DNA of 64,000 nucleotides. Origin: Gemmatimonadota bacterium. GTDB lineage: Bacteria; Gemmatimonadota; Gemmatimonadetes; Palauibacterales; Palauibacteraceae. The stretch covers positions 1 through 64,000 of the forward strand of contig JBHIAV010000004.1 in the NCBI GenBank assembly GCA_046758745.1, given 5' to 3'. Shown here piece after piece: positions 2-54,240 of this stretch. Below the pieces are notes generated by a model, which was given only the letters and a program-made list of their open reading frames with translations, was not told the DNA's origin and ran no database searches. Each line of letters begins with the position of its first letter. Position 1 is the first letter of the stretch. The translations under genes were made by a program, and so were the position numbers.

Positions 2-1780
2 CCGCCGCACGGCCGAACGGAGCGGCAGGACGAGGGAGGGCCGTCGGGACGGAGTGCCGGCTGGCGGGGGGGGATTCCGGCCTGGCCGGCCGGAGGGCGG
101 CTCCTCGCTTGCCTCCTGCTCGCCGGCTGCGACGGGGCTGACGGGCAGGGAGGGGCCCGCTCGGACTCGGCCTCCCCTGCCCCGTTCACCGATGTCACGG
201 CGGAGGTCGGGCTTGCCTTCGTGCACGACGCGGGGGTCGACTCCTCCTACTACATGCCGGAGAGCATCGGCTCCGGCGGCGCGTTCCTCGACTACGACGG
301 CGACGGGGATCTCGACATCTACCTGGTGAACGGAGCCCGGCGCGGGGTGGCCGGCCGGAGCCGGCCGCCGCTCCGAAACCGGCTCTTTCGACAGGAGGCG
401 GACGGGAGCTTCACGGACGTCACGGAGGCGAGCGGGCTCGGTGACCCCGGGTACGGAATGGGCGTGGCGGTCGGCGACATCGACAACGACGGCGATCCGG
501 ACGTGTACGTCACGAACGTCGGCCCCGACGCGCTGTACCGGAACGAGGGGGACGGGACGTTCGCCGAGATCTCCCGCGCCGCCGGAATCGGGAACCCGGC
601 GTGGGGCGCCTCCGCCGTCTTCTTCGACTACGACTCGGATGGTCTTCTCGATCTCTACGTGACGAACTACGTGGCGTTCGACTCGACGGTCGTGTGCACG
701 GACGAGGCCGGGCGGCCCGACTACTGCGGCCCGGCCGCCTTCCCCGGCGTGCCGGATGTCCTGTACCACAACGAGGGGAACGGCACCTTCGCCGACGTCT
801 CGGTCGCCTCGGGCATCGCGGCAGGACGCTCCAAGGGACTCGGGGTGGTCGCCGCGGACTTCGATCGGGATGGCCGGCAGGACCTTTACGTAGCGAACGA
901 CGGCGAGGCGAACCACCTGTGGCTGAACGAGGGAGACGGCACCTTCCGCGATGAGGCGGGCGCCCTGGGGGCGGCCGTGAACGCCCTCGGCCGGCCGGAG
1001 GCCGGGATGGGCATCGCCCTCGGGGACATCGATGAGGATGCGGACCTCGACCTCCTCATCACCCACCTGGGCGGGGAGACCAACACCCTGTACCGGCGCG
1101 CGGGGCCCTACGGCTACCAGGACGACACCTCCCTCGCCGGCCTGCACGGGCCGAGCCTCCCCTACACGGGCTTCGGAACGGGCTTCGTGGACTACGACCA
1201 GGACGGGGACCTGGACCTGGTCGTGGTGAACGGTCGGGTCATCCGCGGCCCCCCGCTCACCACCGGGCGCCCGCCCGACTGGTGGGACCCGTACGCCGAG
1301 CCCAATCAGCTGTTCGAGAACGACGGGGCCGGGCGCTTCCGGGAGGTGAGCGAGGGGGTCCCCGCCCTCTTCGAGGCGGTGGAGAACAGCCGTGGCCTCG
1401 CCTTCGGCGACGTGGACGAGGACGGCGACCTCGACCTGCTGATCACGAACGGTGGCGGGCCGGCTCGTCTGCTGCGGAGCGACGGGGCAAAGGGCCACTG
1501 GCTGATCGTGCGGGCGGTCGAGCCCGCCCTGCGGCGCGACGCGATCGGGGCCGAGGTCACCGTGGTGGCGGGCGGAAGGCGGCTGCACCGCATCGCAACC
1601 GCCGGAGAGAGCTTCCTGTCGAGCAGCGATCCGCGCGTCCATTTCGGTCTGGGGGACGCGGCGGAGGTGGAACGGATCCTCGTCCGCTGGCCGGACGGGA
1701 CGAGCGAGGCTTTTCCGGGCGTGGCCGCGGACCGAGCGGTCACGCTACGAAGGGGCGAGGGGGCGCCGGCGGATGGGTAG
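2..1780 (+). CDS. CRTAC1-family lipoprotein (FG-GAP/VCBS repeats + C-terminal ASPIC/UnbV domain), 5' end probably outside window
   Basis: Repeated DxDxDGDxDL motifs and C-terminal 'SFLSSSDPRVHFGLG...VRWPDG'. The frame is open upstream of the GTG at 221 to the window start and reads ...RLLACLLLAGCDG... (lipobox, Cys codon 128-130) then PFTDVTAEVGLAF. Confidence 0.88.
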   Translation, partial: PPHGRTERQDEGGPSGRSAGWRGGIPAWPAGGRLLACLLLAGCDGADGQGGARSDSASPAPFTDVTAEVGLAFVHDAGVDSSYYMPESIGSGGAFLDYDGDGDLDIYLVNGARRGVAGRSRPPLRNRLFRQEADGSFTDVTEASGLGDPGYGMGVAVGDIDNDGDPDVYVTNVGPDALYRNEGDGTFAEISRAAGIGNPAWGASAVFFDYDSDGLLDLYVTNYVAFDSTVVCTDEAGRPDYCGPAAFPGVPDVLYHNEGNGTFADVSVASGIAAGRSKGLGVVAADFDRDGRQDLYVANDGEANHLWLNEGDGTFRDEAGALGAAVNALGRPEAGMGIALGDIDEDADLDLLITHLGGETNTLYRRAGPYGYQDDTSLAGLHGPSLPYTGFGTGFVDYDQDGDLDLVVVNGRVIRGPPLTTGRPPDWWDPYAEPNQLFENDGAGRFREVSEGVPALFEAVENSRGLAFGDVDEDGDLDLLITNGGGPARLLRSDGAKGHWLIVRAVEPALRRDAIGAEVTVVAGGRRLHRIATAGESFLSSSDPRVHFGLGDAAEVERILVRWPDGTSEAFPGVAADRAVTLRRGEGAPADG

Positions 1781-1800
1781 GGCCCGGGCACCCTGTGGGC

Positions 1801-3393
1801 ATGGGTAGGAGCCGGCGCCGCCGCGGCCGCCGCACTGCAAGGGGGAAGCGGCGCTCCCGGAGGCCCTCCCCTGCCCCGCCGCGCCGGGCGGCGCGCCGCG
1901 CGACCCTCTACCTGGCCGGCTTCGCCCTCCTCCTCGCCGCCGGGATCGGCTCGTGGCGGCTCCTCGGACGGCACGATGCGTTGGAGCGGCTTCCGGACCC
2001 CGATCTCGCCGCCATGGAGCCGCAGGTGGCGGCGAGGATCCGGGCCCTCCGCGCCGCCGTCGAGCGCGACCCGAGCGACGGAGCCGGGTGGGGCCGTCTG
2101 GCCATGAGCCTCCACGTGCACGGCCTGGAGCGCGAAGCGCTCCCCGCCTATCGAGAGGCCGCCTCGCTCGAGCCAGGCGAGTTCCGGTGGCCCTACTACG
2201 CCGCGATCGCCCTGGCGAGCGGCGGCGGCTCGGAGGAAGCCCTCGCCTGGTTCGAGCGGGCCCGCTCCCTGCGGCCGGCCTACGCCCCGCTCGGCGTGCT
2301 GGAGGGAGAGGCACTCTTCGATGCGGGCCGCTACGAGGAGGCCGCGCGCGCCTTCGGCCGCGCCCTCCAGGCCGACTCGGCCCTCTCCCATGCCCACCTC
2401 GGCCTCGCCCGCCTCGCCCTGGCGAGGGGGAACGCGGAGGAGAGCCGCCGGCACCTCGAGCGGGCGGTGGCCACTGACCGCCGGCACGGCGAGGCCCGCG
2501 GGCTGCTGGCCGAGGCGTACCGGCGGCTCGGAGAGCCGGAGAGGGCCGACCTCGAGAGCCGCAAGGCGGAGATCCTGCCGAAAGTGACGCCGCTCGCCGA
2601 TCCCGTGTACCGAGAGCTGGCGAAGGAGGGGATCAGCTCCTTCTGGCGCCGGCGCCGCGGCCAGGCGTACCTGCAGGCCGGCCTCACCGAAGCGGCCATC
2701 GGGGAGCTCCGCGCGGCGCTCGAGGTGCGGCCGGATGCGGAGGCGCACGACAACCTCGGCTTCGCCCTCCACCAGGCCGGAGCGCGCGCCGAGGCGATCC
2801 GGCACTTCCGGGCCGCCCTCGAGCTCCGGCCCACCTACGCGCCGGCGCTCGTCCACCTGGGAACCGCACTGTTCGAGGCCGGCAGCGTCGAGGAGGCGAT
2901 CTCCTACGCCGAGGAGGCGACGCGGCGCGACCCCGCTCTCGCCGAGGCGTGGCACGAGCTCGGCCTCTTCCGGGCGAGCGCCGGCCGAGCCCGTGCGGCC
3001 GCGGAGGCGTTCCGCCAGGGCCTGGCGAGCGCCCGATACGACCTCCGCATCGCGGCGCGGCTGGCGTGGCTGCTGGCAGCCTCACCAGAAGCAGCCGTCC
3101 GGGATGGGACGGAGTCGGTGCGCGTAGCCGAAGAGGCCTGCGAGCTTACCGACTACCGGTTCCCCGAGCTGCTCGATGTCCTCGCGGCGGCATACGCCGA
3201 GACAGGGCGCTTCGATCGTGCGATCGAGACGGCTCGGGCCGCCGGGCGGCTGGCGACTGCCGCCGGGCAAGATGAGCTGGCGGCGCGAATCGGAGGCCGC
3301 CTCGCCCTGTACGAGGCCGGACGAGCGTACCGAGAGCCCGGGCCACGAGGGTCCGCAGCTGAACCTGCGACCCCCCGCTCCCAAAGCTCCTGA
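1801..3393 (+). CDS. Membrane-anchored tetratricopeptide repeat protein
   Basis: ATG at 1801, Arg-rich N-terminus, one hydrophobic helix (LYLAGFALLLAAGIG), many TPR-like units (AHDNLGFAL, ALVHLGTAL), C-terminal 'LAWLLAA...LDVLAAAYAETGRF'. Confidence 0.85.
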   Translation: MGRSRRRRGRRTARGKRRSRRPSPAPPRRAARRATLYLAGFALLLAAGIGSWRLLGRHDALERLPDPDLAAMEPQVAARIRALRAAVERDPSDGAGWGRLAMSLHVHGLEREALPAYREAASLEPGEFRWPYYAAIALASGGGSEEALAWFERARSLRPAYAPLGVLEGEALFDAGRYEEAARAFGRALQADSALSHAHLGLARLALARGNAEESRRHLERAVATDRRHGEARGLLAEAYRRLGEPERADLESRKAEILPKVTPLADPVYRELAKEGISSFWRRRRGQAYLQAGLTEAAIGELRAALEVRPDAEAHDNLGFALHQAGARAEAIRHFRAALELRPTYAPALVHLGTALFEAGSVEEAISYAEEATRRDPALAEAWHELGLFRASAGRARAAAEAFRQGLASARYDLRIAARLAWLLAASPEAAVRDGTESVRVAEEACELTDYRFPELLDVLAAAYAETGRFDRAIETARAAGRLATAAGQDELAARIGGRLALYEAGRAYREPGPRGSAAEPATPRSQSS

Positions 3394-50334: not shown

Positions 50335-51627
50335 TCAGGCGGTAGCGGTACACTGGTGGCGAAGGATGTGCGCTTCGTACTCCTCGCGGAACTTGTCCAG
50401 CGAGGAGCGAAGCGGGAACACCACGCTGTCGGCGAGCACACAGATCGTGCGGCCGGTCAGCTGCTCGCACAGGTCGTACAGGAGGTCTATGTCCGCCAGC
50501 CGACCTTCACCTCCCTCGATGCGACGGAGGATCTCGGTTACCCACGCGGTGCCCTCGCGGCACTGTACGCACTGGCCGCAGGACTCATGGGCATAGAACT
50601 GCGCGATCCGGCGCATCGCTCGCAGGAGGCAGGTCGACTCGTCCATGACGATCGGCGATGCCGTGCCGAGCGAGCTTCCCGCCGCCTGTAACCCCTCGTA
50701 CGTGGTCGGGCAATCGAGCTCGTCGGCGGCCAAGAGCGCGGTGGAGGAGCCTCCCGGAATGACTGCCCGCACCTTCCGTCCGCCCGGGATCCCGCCGCAC
50801 ACCTCGAAGATGATGTCCTTGAGGGGGACGCCGAGCTCAAGCTCGTAGTTGCCGGGACGGTCGAGGTGGCCCGAGCAGCACCACAGCTTGGTGCCGGGAC
50901 TCTGCTCGCTCCCCCACTGCCGGTACCACGTCGGCCCGTTGGAGAGGATCATCGGAACGGTAGCGAGCGTCTCGACGTTGTTCACCGTCGTCGGCTTGCC
51001 GAAAACCCCGGCTTGGGCCGGGAAAGGCGGCTTCGCTCGCGGCTCGGCCCGGCCGCCCTGCAGGGAGCTCATCAGGCCCGTCTCCTCCCCCGCGATGTAG
51101 GCGCCCGCCCCGATGTGCACGGTGACGTCGCAGTCCCACCCGCTGCCCAGGATGTTGCGGCCGATCAGCCCAGCTTCGTAGGCCTCCGTGACCGCGGCAT
51201 TCAGGACCCGCACCACGGGAAAGAACTCGCCACGCACGTAGATGTAGACGTGCTCTGCGCGGATGGCGCGGGCGGCGATCAGGCACCCCTCTATGAGCAG
51301 GTGCGGGGTCCAGCGAAGGATCTCCCGGTCCTTGAAGGCGCCGGGCTCGCTCTCATCGGCGTTGCAGCAAAGGTAATGCGGCTGCCCGTCGTCCCTCGGC
51401 ATGAAGCTCCACTTCATGCCCGTCGGGAAGCCGGCTCCTCCCCTGCCTCGCAGCCCGGAGTCCTTCACCACCTTCGTGATCTCCTCGGGTGACATCCGGA
51501 GCGCCTGCCCGAGCGCCTCGTATCCCTCCATGCGCCGCCATGCCTCGAGCGTGCGGGCGGATGGGTCCCCCATGTGACGTGAGAGGAGCGTCCCCACCTC
51601 GAGCGGATGCGAGTGCGGATAGCCCAT
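50335..51627 (-). CDS. nuoF: NADH-quinone oxidoreductase subunit F
   Basis: 'GRGGAGFPTG', 'NADESEPG', 'ESCGQCVQCREG'. Confidence 0.97.
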   Translation of the reverse strand: MGYPHSHPLEVGTLLSRHMGDPSARTLEAWRRMEGYEALGQALRMSPEEITKVVKDSGLRGRGGAGFPTGMKWSFMPRDDGQPHYLCCNADESEPGAFKDREILRWTPHLLIEGCLIAARAIRAEHVYIYVRGEFFPVVRVLNAAVTEAYEAGLIGRNILGSGWDCDVTVHIGAGAYIAGEETGLMSSLQGGRAEPRAKPPFPAQAGVFGKPTTVNNVETLATVPMILSNGPTWYRQWGSEQSPGTKLWCCSGHLDRPGNYELELGVPLKDIIFEVCGGIPGGRKVRAVIPGGSSTALLAADELDCPTTYEGLQAAGSSLGTASPIVMDESTCLLRAMRRIAQFYAHESCGQCVQCREGTAWVTEILRRIEGGEGRLADIDLLYDLCEQLTGRTICVLADSVVFPLRSSLDKFREEYEAHILRHQCTATA

Positions 51628-51635
51628 GGCAGAGT

Positions 51636-52184
51636 TCAGCCGAGCCCGTCCAGGATCTCCCGGACAGACTCGGGAGTCACGTTCTCGTAGTACTCATCGT
51701 TGATCTGAACGACCGTGGCGAACCCGCACGCCCCGAGGCATTCGACCTCCAGCACCGTGAACCGCCCGTCCTCGGAGACCTCTCCCGGCCGCGTGCCCGT
51801 CTCCTCGAGGAAGCTGCGAAGGACATCGTCCGCCCGGTTCAGGTGACATGAGATGTTGGTGCACACCTGGATCACGTGCTTCCCGAGCGGATGGCGGTTG
51901 TACATGGTGTAGAAGGTGGCGACCGAATGGACGTGCGCCGGTGTGAGATCCAGCGCATCGGCGATCTCCACCATGGCCTCCGGCGACACCCAACCGTTAC
52001 GCTCCTGGGCGTAGTTGAGCAGGGGGAGCAGCGCGGCTCGCTTCTCCGGATACCGGCTCAGCGCCTTCGCCAGCCGATCGCGACCCTCATCGTCGGCGAA
52101 CAGCGCCTCGACGGGACGCCTCTCCGCCAGCATGAACGGCTGTGCCCCGACCACGGCCGGGTGGATTCCCTCGGTCAACGCCAC
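51636..52184 (-). CDS. nuoE: NADH-quinone oxidoreductase subunit E
   Basis: 'VATFYTMY', 'CTNISC', 'CLGACG'; start uncertain. Confidence 0.95.
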   Translation of the reverse strand: MALTEGIHPAVVGAQPFMLAERRPVEALFADDEGRDRLAKALSRYPEKRAALLPLLNYAQERNGWVSPEAMVEIADALDLTPAHVHSVATFYTMYNRHPLGKHVIQVCTNISCHLNRADDVLRSFLEETGTRPGEVSEDGRFTVLEVECLGACGFATVVQINDEYYENVTPESVREILDGLG

Positions 52185-52411
52185 CTACCCGTCGTTTCCG
52201 CCAAAGGCAATGTCCAACGAAGCCTGCTCCGCCTGCGGCGGAGACGCGGCCGGCCACCGTGACCGACTCCCAAGTCGTTCGGCGATCCATCGCGCCCAAG
52301 ACAATGCCGAGCCACGCATGCTCTGCCTGCGGCAAGGATGCTCGTGCTCGAGGGCTAGCTCGCTCATCCGCTTACCGATCGATCTCGCCAAGAACAATGT
52401 CCAACGAAGCA
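52185..52411. repeat. 93-94 bp period array: degenerate nuoD 3'-end copies + palindromic hairpin + unique spacers
   Basis: 40-nt units start at 52185, 52279 and 52372 (the last is the real nuoD end); 23-nt hairpin motifs at 52225 and 52319. Confidence 0.85.
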
Positions 52412-54240
52412 TTGACGGCGATCACATCGGCCACCAGCCCGCCTTCCACCAGATACGGCAGGACGGCCAAGTTCACGAACGAAGGCCCGCGGAAGCGGCA
52501 CCGCACCGGTTTCGATCCCCCATCGGAGACGATCCCGAACCCGAGCTCGCCCTTCGACGCCTCGACCGAGTACCACACTTCGCCCGGCGGAACGTGCAGC
52601 CCTTCCATCACGAGCTTGAAGTGCGAGATCATGGCGTCGATGGACGACATCGCCGCGCTCTTCGGGGGCAGGATCACCGAAGGATCGTCGATGTTGATCG
52701 GACCGTCCGGAAGCCGGTCGAGCGCCTGTTGGATGATGCGCACGCTCTGTCGCATCTCCTCCAAGCGCACGAGATACCGGTCGTAGCTATCGCCGTGCTC
52801 ACCCACCGGAACGTCAAAGTCGTACTCCTCGTAACCGAGATACGGGCGCGCCTTTCGTACGTCGTATGCCACCCCGCTCGCCCGCAGGTTCGGGCCGGTG
52901 AGCCCGAAGCTTACCGCGGTGGGTCCGTCGATCACCCCGACGTCCACCGTGCGAGAGATCCAGATCGAGTTGTTGGTGAGCAGGCGCTCGACCTCGTCCA
53001 GGGTGGCAGGAAGGTTGTCCGCGAACTCCCGGGCTCCGTCGACCCACCCGGGCGGGAGGTCGGCGATCATCCCCCCGATTCGGGTTACGGAAGTGGTGAG
53101 GCGCGCCCCACAGTAGGCCTCGTGCAGGTTGTAGATGCGTTCGCGCTCCTGGAAGGTGTACAGGAACACGGTGAACGCCCCCAGGTCGATGCCGGTGGTC
53201 CCCAGCCAGAGCAGATGGCCATGGATCCGGTTCAGCTCGTTGAGGATCACCCGCAGCACGCGGCAGCGGGGCGTGATCTCGACGCCGAGCAGGCTCTCGA
53301 CCGCGAGTGCGTAGCCGATGTTGTATATCATCGGCGCGAGGTAGTCCATCCGATCCGTGTACGGCACGACCTGGTTCCACTCCCGGTACTCGCACGTCTT
53401 CTCGAACCCGGTGTGCAGGTATCCGATGTGAGGAATGCAGCGAACGACGGTCTCCCCATCCAGCTCGAGCACGAGACGCAGAACCCCGTGAGTGGCCGGG
53501 TGCTGCGGACCGAGGTTGATCAGCATCGTCTCGCCGCTCACGCCACCCTCATCCGCGAGAACGTCCTGTGGCATCCGGTCCGGGACGTCGCGCGGCCCCG
53601 ACTCGCCCGCAAGCCGGCCCGTCATTGCCAGCTCCTCGCGCGTGTAGATGTCCCCAACTTCCCCACTCATCGCCCGGCGCGTCTGCTCGGAGCGGCTGAA
53701 CCGGCCGCGCAGGGGAAAGTCCTTTCGGAGCGGGAAGCCTTCCTCGTAGTTCTCCGGCATGAGGATGCGGCGCAGGTCGGGATGTCCCCGGAAGGTGACG
53801 CCGAACAGGTCGTACACCTCCCTCTCGAGCCAGTCGGCCGTCCGCCACAGCGGGACCGCCGTGTCGATGGAGAGCGAGGTGAGCGGAAGCTCGCACACGA
53901 CGCGGAGCTGTCGGCCGTGTTCCATCGACCACAGCTGATACCACAGCTGAATCGGCCGGCCCCCTCCCGGATCGAATCCCATCACGTCCACGAGGAGATC
54001 GTACGCCTGCGAAGGCTCTTCCTTGAGGAAGCGCAGAATGTCGATGTTGTAGACAGGATCGACGCGGACGACGGTGACTCCGATCGCATCCGCCATCGCG
54101 GGACCGGTCGCGGCGCCGAACCGTTGGCGGAGCGCACGAACGGAAGGATGTTCCTCGGGTGGCGGACGGCCCTCCCTCCCGCGTACGGATTCGCCGAGAA
54201 CGAGGCCGGGGGGAGCTTCCGGCGTCGAGGTCACGGGCAT
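52372..54240 (-). CDS. nuoCD: Fused NADH-quinone oxidoreductase subunit C/D
   Basis: NuoC 'EREVYDLFG...HPDLRRIL...PLRKDFP' then NuoD 'GPQHPATHGVLR', ending 'DIVLGEIDR'. Confidence 0.96.
   Translation of the reverse strand: MPVTSTPEAPPGLVLGESVRGREGRPPPEEHPSVRALRQRFGAATGPAMADAIGVTVVRVDPVYNIDILRFLKEEPSQAYDLLVDVMGFDPGGGRPIQLWYQLWSMEHGRQLRVVCELPLTSLSIDTAVPLWRTADWLEREVYDLFGVTFRGHPDLRRILMPENYEEGFPLRKDFPLRGRFSRSEQTRRAMSGEVGDIYTREELAMTGRLAGESGPRDVPDRMPQDVLADEGGVSGETMLINLGPQHPATHGVLRLVLELDGETVVRCIPHIGYLHTGFEKTCEYREWNQVVPYTDRMDYLAPMIYNIGYALAVESLLGVEITPRCRVLRVILNELNRIHGHLLWLGTTGIDLGAFTVFLYTFQERERIYNLHEAYCGARLTTSVTRIGGMIADLPPGWVDGAREFADNLPATLDEVERLLTNNSIWISRTVDVGVIDGPTAVSFGLTGPNLRASGVAYDVRKARPYLGYEEYDFDVPVGEHGDSYDRYLVRLEEMRQSVRIIQQALDRLPDGPINIDDPSVILPPKSAAMSSIDAMISHFKLVMEGLHVPPGEVWYSVEASKGELGFGIVSDGGSKPVRCRFRGPSFVNLAVLPYLVEGGLVADVIAVNASLDIVLGEIDR

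Follow-up and report, generated by a model that had tools for sequence, protein, structure and literature searches.

The stretch of DNA analyzed here (the window; 64,000 nucleotides) carries a nuo operon on its minus strand, in which nuoCD, a fusion gene for the complex I subunits C and D, precedes nuoE and nuoF (Table 1). The nuoCD product matches Complex1_30kDa (PF00329) and Complex1_49kDa (PF00346). The latter match reaches the final profile position (271/271) at residue 622 in Pfam, and the functional C-terminus reads ...NASLDIVLGEIDR*. The interval from the nuoCD stop to the nuoE GTG start measures 187 nt and contains two additional copies of the nuoD 3′ end. In the order of transcription, the real end is followed by 30 nt, a 23-nt motif, copy B, 31 nt, a second 23-nt motif, copy A, and nuoE. 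An earlier note, made from the letters of this DNA, had described the same arrangement, and its coordinates and layout of real end, motifs, spacers, and copies all hold, as do its translations of the three ends. The genome of the window (G000) is an assembly of 130 contigs and 3,075,321 bases that is 87.4% complete. A genome search found nuoD to be single-copy in G000, and a second nuoD paralogue as the source of the spare ends was rejected, as none is present there.

Table 1. Features at the nuoD–nuoE junction and neighboring genes, with positions in the window.
Feature	Position	Strand	Remarks
nuoCD	52372..54240	-	complex I subunits C+D; 622 aa; ORF list, Pfam PF00329 + PF00346
Real 41-nt segment	52372..52412	-	second base of Asn codon through stop TAA; reads ASLDIVLGEIDR*; boundary A-Y/GCN co-varies with the copy in 11 genomes
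Insert X1 (spacer 1 + hairpin 1)	52320..52371	-	41.5 bits against covariance model R1, which was built from X1 and 12 other units
60-codon open frame bridging nuoD and nuoE	52185..52367	-	from an ATG 5 nt past the nuoD stop to the copy A stop
Hairpin 1	52321..52337	-	CCTTGCC-GCA-GGCAGAG; imperfect stem (one G-U pair, one mismatch)
Copy B of nuoD end	52279..52319	-	reads AWLGIVLGAMDR, without a stop of its own; CGA replaces the stop
Insert X2 (spacer 2 + hairpin 2)	52226..52278	-	46.2 bits (R1); spacer part homologous to G020 unit 2
Hairpin 2	52227..52243	-	CTCCGCC-GCA-GGCGGAG; perfect 7-bp stem
Copy A of nuoD end	52185..52225	-	reads ASLDIAFGGNDG*; its TAG abuts the nuoE GTG
nuoE	51636..52184	-	182 aa; GTG start at 52184; PF01257, E 8.3e-54
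nuoF	50335-51627	-	ORF list/Pfam

Ungapped comparison gave 30/40 identities between the real end and copy A, 27/40 between the real end and copy B, and 22/40 between the two copies. The count for copy B is the one given before, and the 30 identities of copy A are likewise reproduced, here counted over 40 nt. The contiguous 16-nt match between the real end and copy A was recovered as an exact repeat. When the real-end 40-mer was scanned against both strands of the 130 contigs, identities of ≥26/40 occurred only at the real end itself and at copies A and B, and because these are the only such windows in 3,075,321 bases, the match is far beyond chance. A repeat search returned three copies of 41 nt at spacings of 94 and 93 nt, i.e., an array period of ~93 nt. 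Tandem Repeats Finder yielded nothing scoring ≥30 on the array, since the units are too diverged. Within G000, the two 23-nt motifs are alike at 18/23 positions and the two spacers at 10/30. Neither strand of positions 51500-53000 gave an Rfam covariance-model match at E ≤10, and the fold of the whole 261-nt region was no better than that of shuffles (z +0.64).

To place the array among relatives, 41 genomes and then all 114 genomes of the family were covered by DNA search; the junction was found in 107 of them, and 49 junctions were read. Each unit combines a 53–57 nt non-coding insert, termed X, with a downstream copy of the final 41 nt of nuoD. Units were present in 11 of the 114 genomes and in 4 of the 20 genera of one Gemmatimonadales family. 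Two units occur in G000 (genus g1; 1/1 genomes unit-bearing) and in G020 (g2; 2/3), and a single unit in G001 (g2), in G092 (g12; 1/2), and in each of seven g13 genomes (7/16; G042, G044, G047, G050, G051, G052, and G055), leaving the other 16 genera at 0/92. In the remaining junctions that were read, stop and start overlap or are separated by a short spacer. Relatives thus carry zero, one, or two units, as the earlier note had envisaged, and the junction is not invariant. A looser pattern applied to the 114 genomes returned the identical set minus G055, which was missed because its copy breaks the pattern.

In all unit-bearing genomes, the copy begins within the Asn codon that lies 13 codons ahead of the stop, at that codon's second base and straight after hairpin-C-A-Y, and the A-Y preceding the copy co-varies with each genome's own Asn codon. 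The common start point after the motif, already described for the window, therefore holds at the level of the single base and is site specific, with the refinement that the duplicated segment begins at Asn codon base 2 and hence measures 41 nt. The nuoD end is complete in the unit-bearing junctions, in line with the view that the gene end stays intact, and copy A occupies the context that is held by the real nuoD end in unit-free genomes. Comparison of g13 genomes with and without a unit revealed one clean block of 92–93 nt, the ends of which repeat the target.

Beyond the family, a degenerate pattern (gene end, 40–70 nt, in-frame copy) was applied to 185,579 GTDB species, one genome each, and to JGI metagenome contigs. 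Among the former, 53 stretches matched, eight of which were true (28–39 of 39 identical), each titled Gemmatimonadota or Gemmatimonadales, and 45 of which were chance matches of ≤16/39. The JGI contigs gave 93 stretches, comprising three true ones, all of the g13 type, and 90 of ≤17/39. Outside the family, the layout was not found in the GTDB species genomes or JGI contigs, save for these three g13-type contigs. A further candidate is G017 (genus g18), where nuoD and nuoE lie on separate contigs; the former contig stops and the latter opens precisely where the duplicated segment starts. As a collapsed repeat would give such contig breaks, G017 may carry units too.

The insert X is composed of a fast-evolving 5′ part and a GC hairpin, whose stem of 6–7 bp is closed by a GCA loop. 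The 13 inserts align nearly gap-free and, judged by these alignments, all belong to a single homologous family. For the spacer parts only, alignment scores were compared with shuffles. This gave z-scores of 4.5–5.0 for the second units of G000 and G020, about 4 for the two units of G020, 6.3–7.2 for G020 unit 1 and G001, 3.1–3.4 for G020 unit 1 and G055 of g13, and −0.7 for the two units of G000. The spacers had been called unrelated to each other, which holds inside G000 alone, since its two spacers diverged; across genera they form one diverging family, in which the unit-2 spacers of G000 and G020 are homologous and the spacers of G020 are paralogous. Unit order in the two-unit array is the same in g1 and g2, and the unit-2 spacer is ~75% identical between these two genera, above what we expected for neutral sequence. 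These relationships point to amplification of one unit in place, not to two captures. Among ten g13-type sequences, differences per site amounted to 0.25 in the 5′ part of X, 0.117 in the copy, 0.083 in the hairpin, and 0.07 in the real end.

The hairpin stem is CTTTGCC/GGCAAAG in g13, GCGCCC/GGGCGC in g2, and CTCCGCC/GGCGGAG in the second unit of G000; variants occur in the other units. A CGTC lies directly 5′ of the stem in g2, g12, and G000 unit 2, and is absent from g13 and G000 unit 1. In an alignment of 12 distinct hairpin sequences, 89.3% of cells were paired, and four of the seven pairs had changed on both sides. The covariation score was reached by 0/500 shuffles, and slid controls paired at 27–60%; this covariation draws on about five independent lineages, and quasi-palindrome correction could mimic selection. 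The hairpin is probably the selected part of the unit and a candidate intercistronic RNA stem-loop. Other, unrelated small hairpins are found at the nuoD/nuoE junction of G041 and of g7 genomes, which fits selection for a stem-loop at this position. The hairpin-bearing spacer of G041 was also considered as a relative of X and rejected (z ≤2.6).

Several searches addressed mobility. The motif scan of G000 placed the motifs at the nuoD locus only, and the pairing with other duplicated gene ends that the earlier note had proposed to scan for was not seen in this genome. A pattern scan of five g13 genomes gave no second locus. BLAST of the G020 array against G020, G001, G093, G055, and G092 found no second match beyond GC-rich shorts (E ≥5.5e-4). 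A covariance model of X, run on the 114 genomes, recovered the 13 known units at 36.9–62.5 bits, with the next best hit at 33.8. Five of the hits that followed were inspected, and these lay in coding sequence or had no flanking duplication (best match between upstream and downstream 20-mers, 11–13 of 20). X had no match elsewhere in the genomes searched or in phages or plasmids, against which BLAST of the array, suggested as a way to the source of the spacers, returned short GC-rich matches alone (E ≥0.2). Cas1 (PF01867) had 0 matches in G000 at its 87.4% completeness. One weak Y1_Tnp match (PF01797, 34 bits) lies on another contig, and beside it no X-like hairpins were seen; the statement that no transposase or cas gene is linked to the array stands. 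Hairpins with a GCA loop number 45 in G000, like those with other loops, and are not enriched. The same applies to tagged hairpins in G000, with 28 observed vs 29.3 expected for CGTC and 4 vs 7.4 for GTAG.

The array can be compared with several known systems. The elements e14 or phage 21 in icd, and islands in tRNA genes, are kb-sized, carry an integrase, and replace the end of the gene that they enter. The nuoD array is similar in that the gene is intact, a displaced end lies downstream, and the differences are mainly synonymous; here, however, only 53–57 nt separate the ends, and the unit contains no integrase gene. The RtT repeats, tRNA-linked repeats distal to tyrT in E. coli, are tandem units of ~178 nt that repeat a gene 3′ end. 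By description, they share the tandem 3′-end copies downstream, but RtT follows a tRNA gene and is not known to have a covarying hairpin directly before the copy. The malE-malF REP and the puf operon provide examples of intercistronic stem-loops that set segmental mRNA stability. They resemble the present case in having a stable hairpin between cistrons of a long operon, with a function that would here be a proposed one, and differ in that they are not known to involve a gene-end duplication.

Insertion with long target duplication is said to have been described by Nobusato et al. in 2000. In the sections of a later paper that describe such cases, the insert is flanked by direct repeats of >30 bp that are single-copy where the insert is missing, Haemophilus cases have 46-bp target duplications overlapping gene 3′ ends, and the inserts are kb-sized restriction-modification gene units for which these sections give no transposase or integrase (PMC2853133). 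As far as those descriptions go, the nuoD array is alike to the cases of Furuta, Abe and Kobayashi (2010) in its repeats of at least 41 nt, which are single-copy in unit-free g13 genomes, and in the lack of a mobility gene; it differs in that the insert is 53–57 nt long, non-coding, hairpin-bearing, common to four genera, and present in up to two units. From what is described for CGTC-tagged REPs (Di Nocera et al. 2013, PMC3733652), REP/BIME elements share with the unit a small GC hairpin downstream of a coding region, co-directional genes, and plausible activity as RNA; a CGTC stands next to the stem in some units and not in others. In contrast, REPs as described there are high-copy and have no 41-nt gene-end duplications, whereas the nuoD hairpin is confined to a single locus. 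In its architecture, the array behaves like an insertion with long target duplication, and its hairpin is similar to one REP-like stem-loop. A literature search for intergenic repeats or hairpins in Gemmatimonadetes gave nothing relevant among the records listed.

Known classes were rejected on the following grounds. For a CRISPR array, the repeats are too unlike (27/40, 30/40, and 22/40), no Cas1 was found in G000, and the spacers are homologous and have no foreign match at E <0.2. REP/BIME elements are at odds with the restriction to the nuoD locus and with a Y1 match that has no flanking X-like hairpins. A MITE or IS does not fit the single-copy state and a target duplication of at least 41 nt, and the aligned inserts show no terminal inverted repeats. 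An integrative element was discarded because merely 53–57 nt lie between the real and the spare end. Finally, in the case of a DGR, the differences are not adenine-specific: copy A departs from the real end at 10 positions, of which only 2 are an A in the real end and 2 an A in the copy.

The history of the units was followed in a FastTree tree of nuoCD, nuoE, and nuoF (47 loci, 3,759 columns), the deep nodes of which are weakly supported. In this three-gene tree, g12 adjoins g13 (support 0.993). Unit-bearing and unit-free genomes are interleaved within g13: G055 and G047, both with a unit, are sister to G048 without one, G052 (with) is sister to G043 (without), G051 and the pair G044 and G050 form a clade with units, and G042, also with a unit, branches near the base. 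Inserts that look alike in g13 belong to host sister groups, pointing, within g12 and g13, to inheritance with at least ~6 losses or else to ~4–5 gains. The genera g1 and g2 stand elsewhere, behind weak deep nodes. With such scattered genera, a single origin requires many losses or transfer by recombination, and its age would be close to that of the family itself, barring movement of the operon segment from one lineage to another. Precise loss would be easy, as the 41-nt direct repeats can recombine with each other. The intergenic sequence of G043 is of the type common to unit-free genomes and no simple deletion product of the allele of its sister G052, and alleles were therefore probably also exchanged between lineages by homologous recombination.

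Signs of exchange or concerted evolution were also seen in the ends themselves. G001 and G020 are ~93% identical around the locus, yet 9/39 sites differ in the nuoD end, and the two genomes hold two end variants in swapped positions, one as real end and the other as copy. In g13, over 35 nt, the real end shows 1.4 differences from its own copy and 2.5 from the copies of other genomes. In G000, copy B differs from the real end by 5 synonymous and 4 non-synonymous codons and copy A by 1 synonymous and 5 non-synonymous codons. With 6 synonymous and 9 non-synonymous differences in sum, the spare ends of G000 read as decaying pseudo-ends. The eleven copies of the other ten genomes present 31 synonymous vs 6 non-synonymous differences (21 vs 2 in g2 alone), and since only ~26% of random changes are synonymous, neutral decay fails outside G000. 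We infer that conversion and allele exchange link the spare ends to the working one, each variant having recently been a real end.

With moderate confidence, we favor an old, locus-bound array with a founding insertion or duplication, inheritance together with the operon, amplification, loss, conversion, and selection on the hairpin. The founding event could have been an insertion with long target duplication, in which a foreign, hairpin-bearing segment of ~40–50 nt would have entered the tight nuoD/nuoE junction once, and the junction (at least 41 nt) would have been duplicated around it. Only a junction-duplicating product would spare the nuoD end as well as the nuoE leader, and because no other product leaves both genes working, the insert would be bracketed by gene-end copies. 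Thereafter, the array would have been inherited together with the operon, amplified in place to two units, and contracted or lost via recombination between the 41-nt repeats. Transfer between lineages by homologous recombination and partial homogenization by gene conversion would have accompanied this. The hairpin would be under selection, most likely as an RNA stem-loop affecting the processing or stability of the long nuo transcript.

If this holds, an insertion can take place between tightly packed essential genes without harm to either, by duplication of the junction around the insert, and such a scar can persist and act as a small recombining array across genera. Moreover, the covarying hairpin offers a testable candidate for a regulatory RNA element within the complex I operon, in a phylum that has received little study. 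Should conversion with the working copy explain the synonymous bias, which concerns two genera, it would represent a general route by which non-functional duplicates are kept intact.

The first unit may instead have arisen by a plain tandem duplication of ~93–107 nt, comprising the last 41 nt of nuoD, the spacer, and the first ~12–15 codons of nuoE. X would then be a decayed spacer plus a copy of the nuoE 5′ end, and the hairpin would have arisen later. Such an event requires no foreign DNA or enzyme, the unit length corresponds to ~31 codons, and in g12 the duplication takes in the GTG start of nuoE (GTGAGCG). In g2, comparison of the initial 16 nt of X with the native sequence that follows the distal copy gave identities at 9–11 of 16 positions, with empirical p-values of 0.0055 (G001), 0.02 (G020 unit 2), and 0.09 (G020 unit 1), the three being related and not independent. 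However, the remainder of X does not resemble the nuoE 5′ region to a significant degree (semi-global z −0.8 to 2.4; local p 0.06–0.98), g13 shares just 2–5 nt past the stop, and the likenesses that can be picked out by eye (CAC-CC, GCG-TCG) fall within GC-rich noise. The earlier note had held that an invariant junction in relatives, together with no pairing of motif and gene end elsewhere, would speak for a one-off tandem duplication; the pairing is indeed confined to the nuoD locus, while the junction varies. We regard tandem duplication as a possible, though unlikely, origin. As the last nuoD codons are also the leader of nuoE, the same selective logic would apply to either route.

Repeated entry of a mobile element was the interpretation first put forward for the window: a site-specific, non-autonomous mini-element of ~54 nt plus a replacement gene end, mobilized in trans and inserted again and again 13 codons before the stop, each event displacing the previous end downstream. 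The patchy occurrence in g13 (7/16), interleaved with unit-free genomes, would agree with this, as would the mostly synonymous differences of the g2 spare ends (21 vs 2), which look as if each had once been functional. Mobility is nevertheless made less likely by the single locus per genome, with no other target in 114 genomes, and by inserts that are homologous across genera and paralogous within the array. In g13, insert similarity tracks the host tree, and the copy bears the nuoD-end variants of its own genome. Furthermore, no Cas1 was found, the lone weak Y1_Tnp match has no related hairpins, and neither GTAG- nor CGTC-tagged hairpins are enriched. Repeated insertion of such an element is therefore doubtful, although a single entry may have founded the array.

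As a tentative extension to which we attach little confidence, the units might be relics of very small hairpin elements, of a class not yet described, that enter gene ends with a long target copy and were here domesticated as an RNA stem-loop. Such elements would have become fixed at one essential operon junction, with spare ends kept codon-perfect via conversion with the working end.

The spare ends might also be used in translation, either through a short ORF that begins at or beside the nuoD stop, crosses X, and terminates with the distal copy next to the nuoE start, relaying ribosomes from nuoD to nuoE, or through a NuoD-tail peptide. In g13, a 31-codon frame from the ATG of an ATGA is open in 10/10 g13-type unit sequences, and the length of X is invariant despite the divergence of 0.25 per site. 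The g12 frame spans one GTGA to the next, the inserts of g12 and g13 (56 vs 53 nt) are 3 nt apart, and G000 has its 60-codon frame, which opens at the ATG 5 nt past the TAA and closes with the TAG directly before the nuoE GTG. This explanation ranks low because g2 has no start codon for such a frame and because nuoE of g13 has its own Shine-Dalgarno sequence (GGAG) and GTG start. The ATGA is not the nuoE start in G046 and G053, where a stop interrupts the ATG frame, and the X part of the peptide lacks conservation. Open frames this long are also common at 68% GC; by our own estimate, the chance of a 60-codon frame staying open is ~0.27, and Pfam returned no family for the 75-aa ORF that contains it. 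The bridging frame in G000 is probably incidental, and we consider a role of translation very unlikely.

A CRISPR-like origin by ectopic Cas1-Cas2 integration, giving a nascent repeat-spacer array, was suggested by the layout with its ~30-nt "spacers" and by the fact that Cas1-Cas2 integration duplicates its target; it is extremely improbable, given spacers that are homologous between genera, paralogous within the array, and devoid of phage or plasmid matches, a block of 53–57 nt that includes a conserved hairpin, repeats just 27–30/40 alike, and no Cas1 in G000. An assembly artefact can practically be dismissed: contigs of one run break within the array (at 52159-52351), but separately assembled contigs from three runs span it, and the same layout recurs in other records, namely 10 further MAGs and 3 metagenome contigs.

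The spanning contigs are Logan contigs of three runs of one study, possibly the source of the assembly. They contain the whole array unbroken with one difference (52334 A>G), a variant that adds one extra mismatch to hairpin 1 in the contigs of runs X1-X3. Spanning of the array, which the earlier note had wanted confirmed from reads, is accordingly seen in the contigs of these three runs and not in those of the fourth. Apart from the old, locus-bound array that we favor at nuoD, a G000-wide search for further gene-end duplications returned mostly coding tandem repeats. One similar locus was observed on contig C14 of G000, and its two genes are not neighbors in relatives.

In the genome carrying the window, nuoC and nuoD form one fused gene that precedes the array, in transcription order, upstream of nuoE. 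At window position 52334, the window has A, and the array-spanning contigs of three sequencing runs of one study (X1–X3) have G, which on the gene strand replaces T by C. This variant introduces one more mismatch into hairpin 1 (CCTTGCC-GCA-GGCAGAG), already the weaker of the two insert hairpins.

Among the relatives, genome G017 (genus g18) has separate nuoD and nuoE contigs, with the former ending and the latter beginning exactly where the duplicated last 41 nt of nuoD start (..ATCAA | ACGCGTCG..). As these breaks suggest a collapsed repeat, units may be present in g18 too. The nuoD–nuoE junction is also a recurrent place of small hairpins. In G041 (genus g13), the spacer holds its own hairpin, CGGATC-GGC-GATCCG, and lacks a gene-end copy; its similarity to insert X was not significant (z ≤ 2.6). 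Spacers of 43–44 nt were found in genus g7 (loci L005 and L010), and that of L005 contains the palindrome GATCCG-TC-CGGATC.

Features at the nuoD–nuoE junction and elsewhere in the genome carrying the window (G000)
Feature	Location	Strand	Size or match
Fused nuoCD gene (G000)	window 52372-54240	-	622 aa
Contig break (G017)	L231 end (G017:C153:4187)
Contig break (G017)	L230 end (G017:C2:79113)
nuoD–nuoE spacer (G041)	L232 (G041:C219) ~60-115	-	56 nt
Lone Y1_Tnp-like ORF (G000)	L214 (G000:C29) 1384-1929	+	181 aa; PF01797, 34 bits
Second gene-end array (G000, outside window)	C14:58088-58260 (L215, ~789-961)		period 77 nt
Exact duplication (G000, outside window)	C30:14407-14505 (L216)		33 nt
Tandem repeat (G000, outside window)	C11:19880-19990		32 nt
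Tandem repeat (G000, outside window)	C13:17800-17990		59 nt

Outside the window, G000 encodes a lone ORF with a weak Y1_Tnp match; X-type, REP-like hairpins were not observed in its flanks. The same genome contains a second gene-end array, located on contig C14 before a universal-stress-protein-like gene. Here, the last 13 nt plus the stop of a DUF411-like gene (...VYASR*) recur three times, each unit comprising ~48 nt of GC-rich, hairpin-prone sequence; units 1 and 2 are near-identical, sharing a 41-nt exact repeat. A further short duplication across a gene end is found on contig C30, where the two copies lie 66 nt apart and, on the other strand, span a stop codon and a CCGCGCGCCGCGCGCGG hairpin. 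The tandem repeats on C11 and C13 start within the last codons of a gene and continue beyond its stop. Short tandem duplications over stop codons seem to be common in G000.
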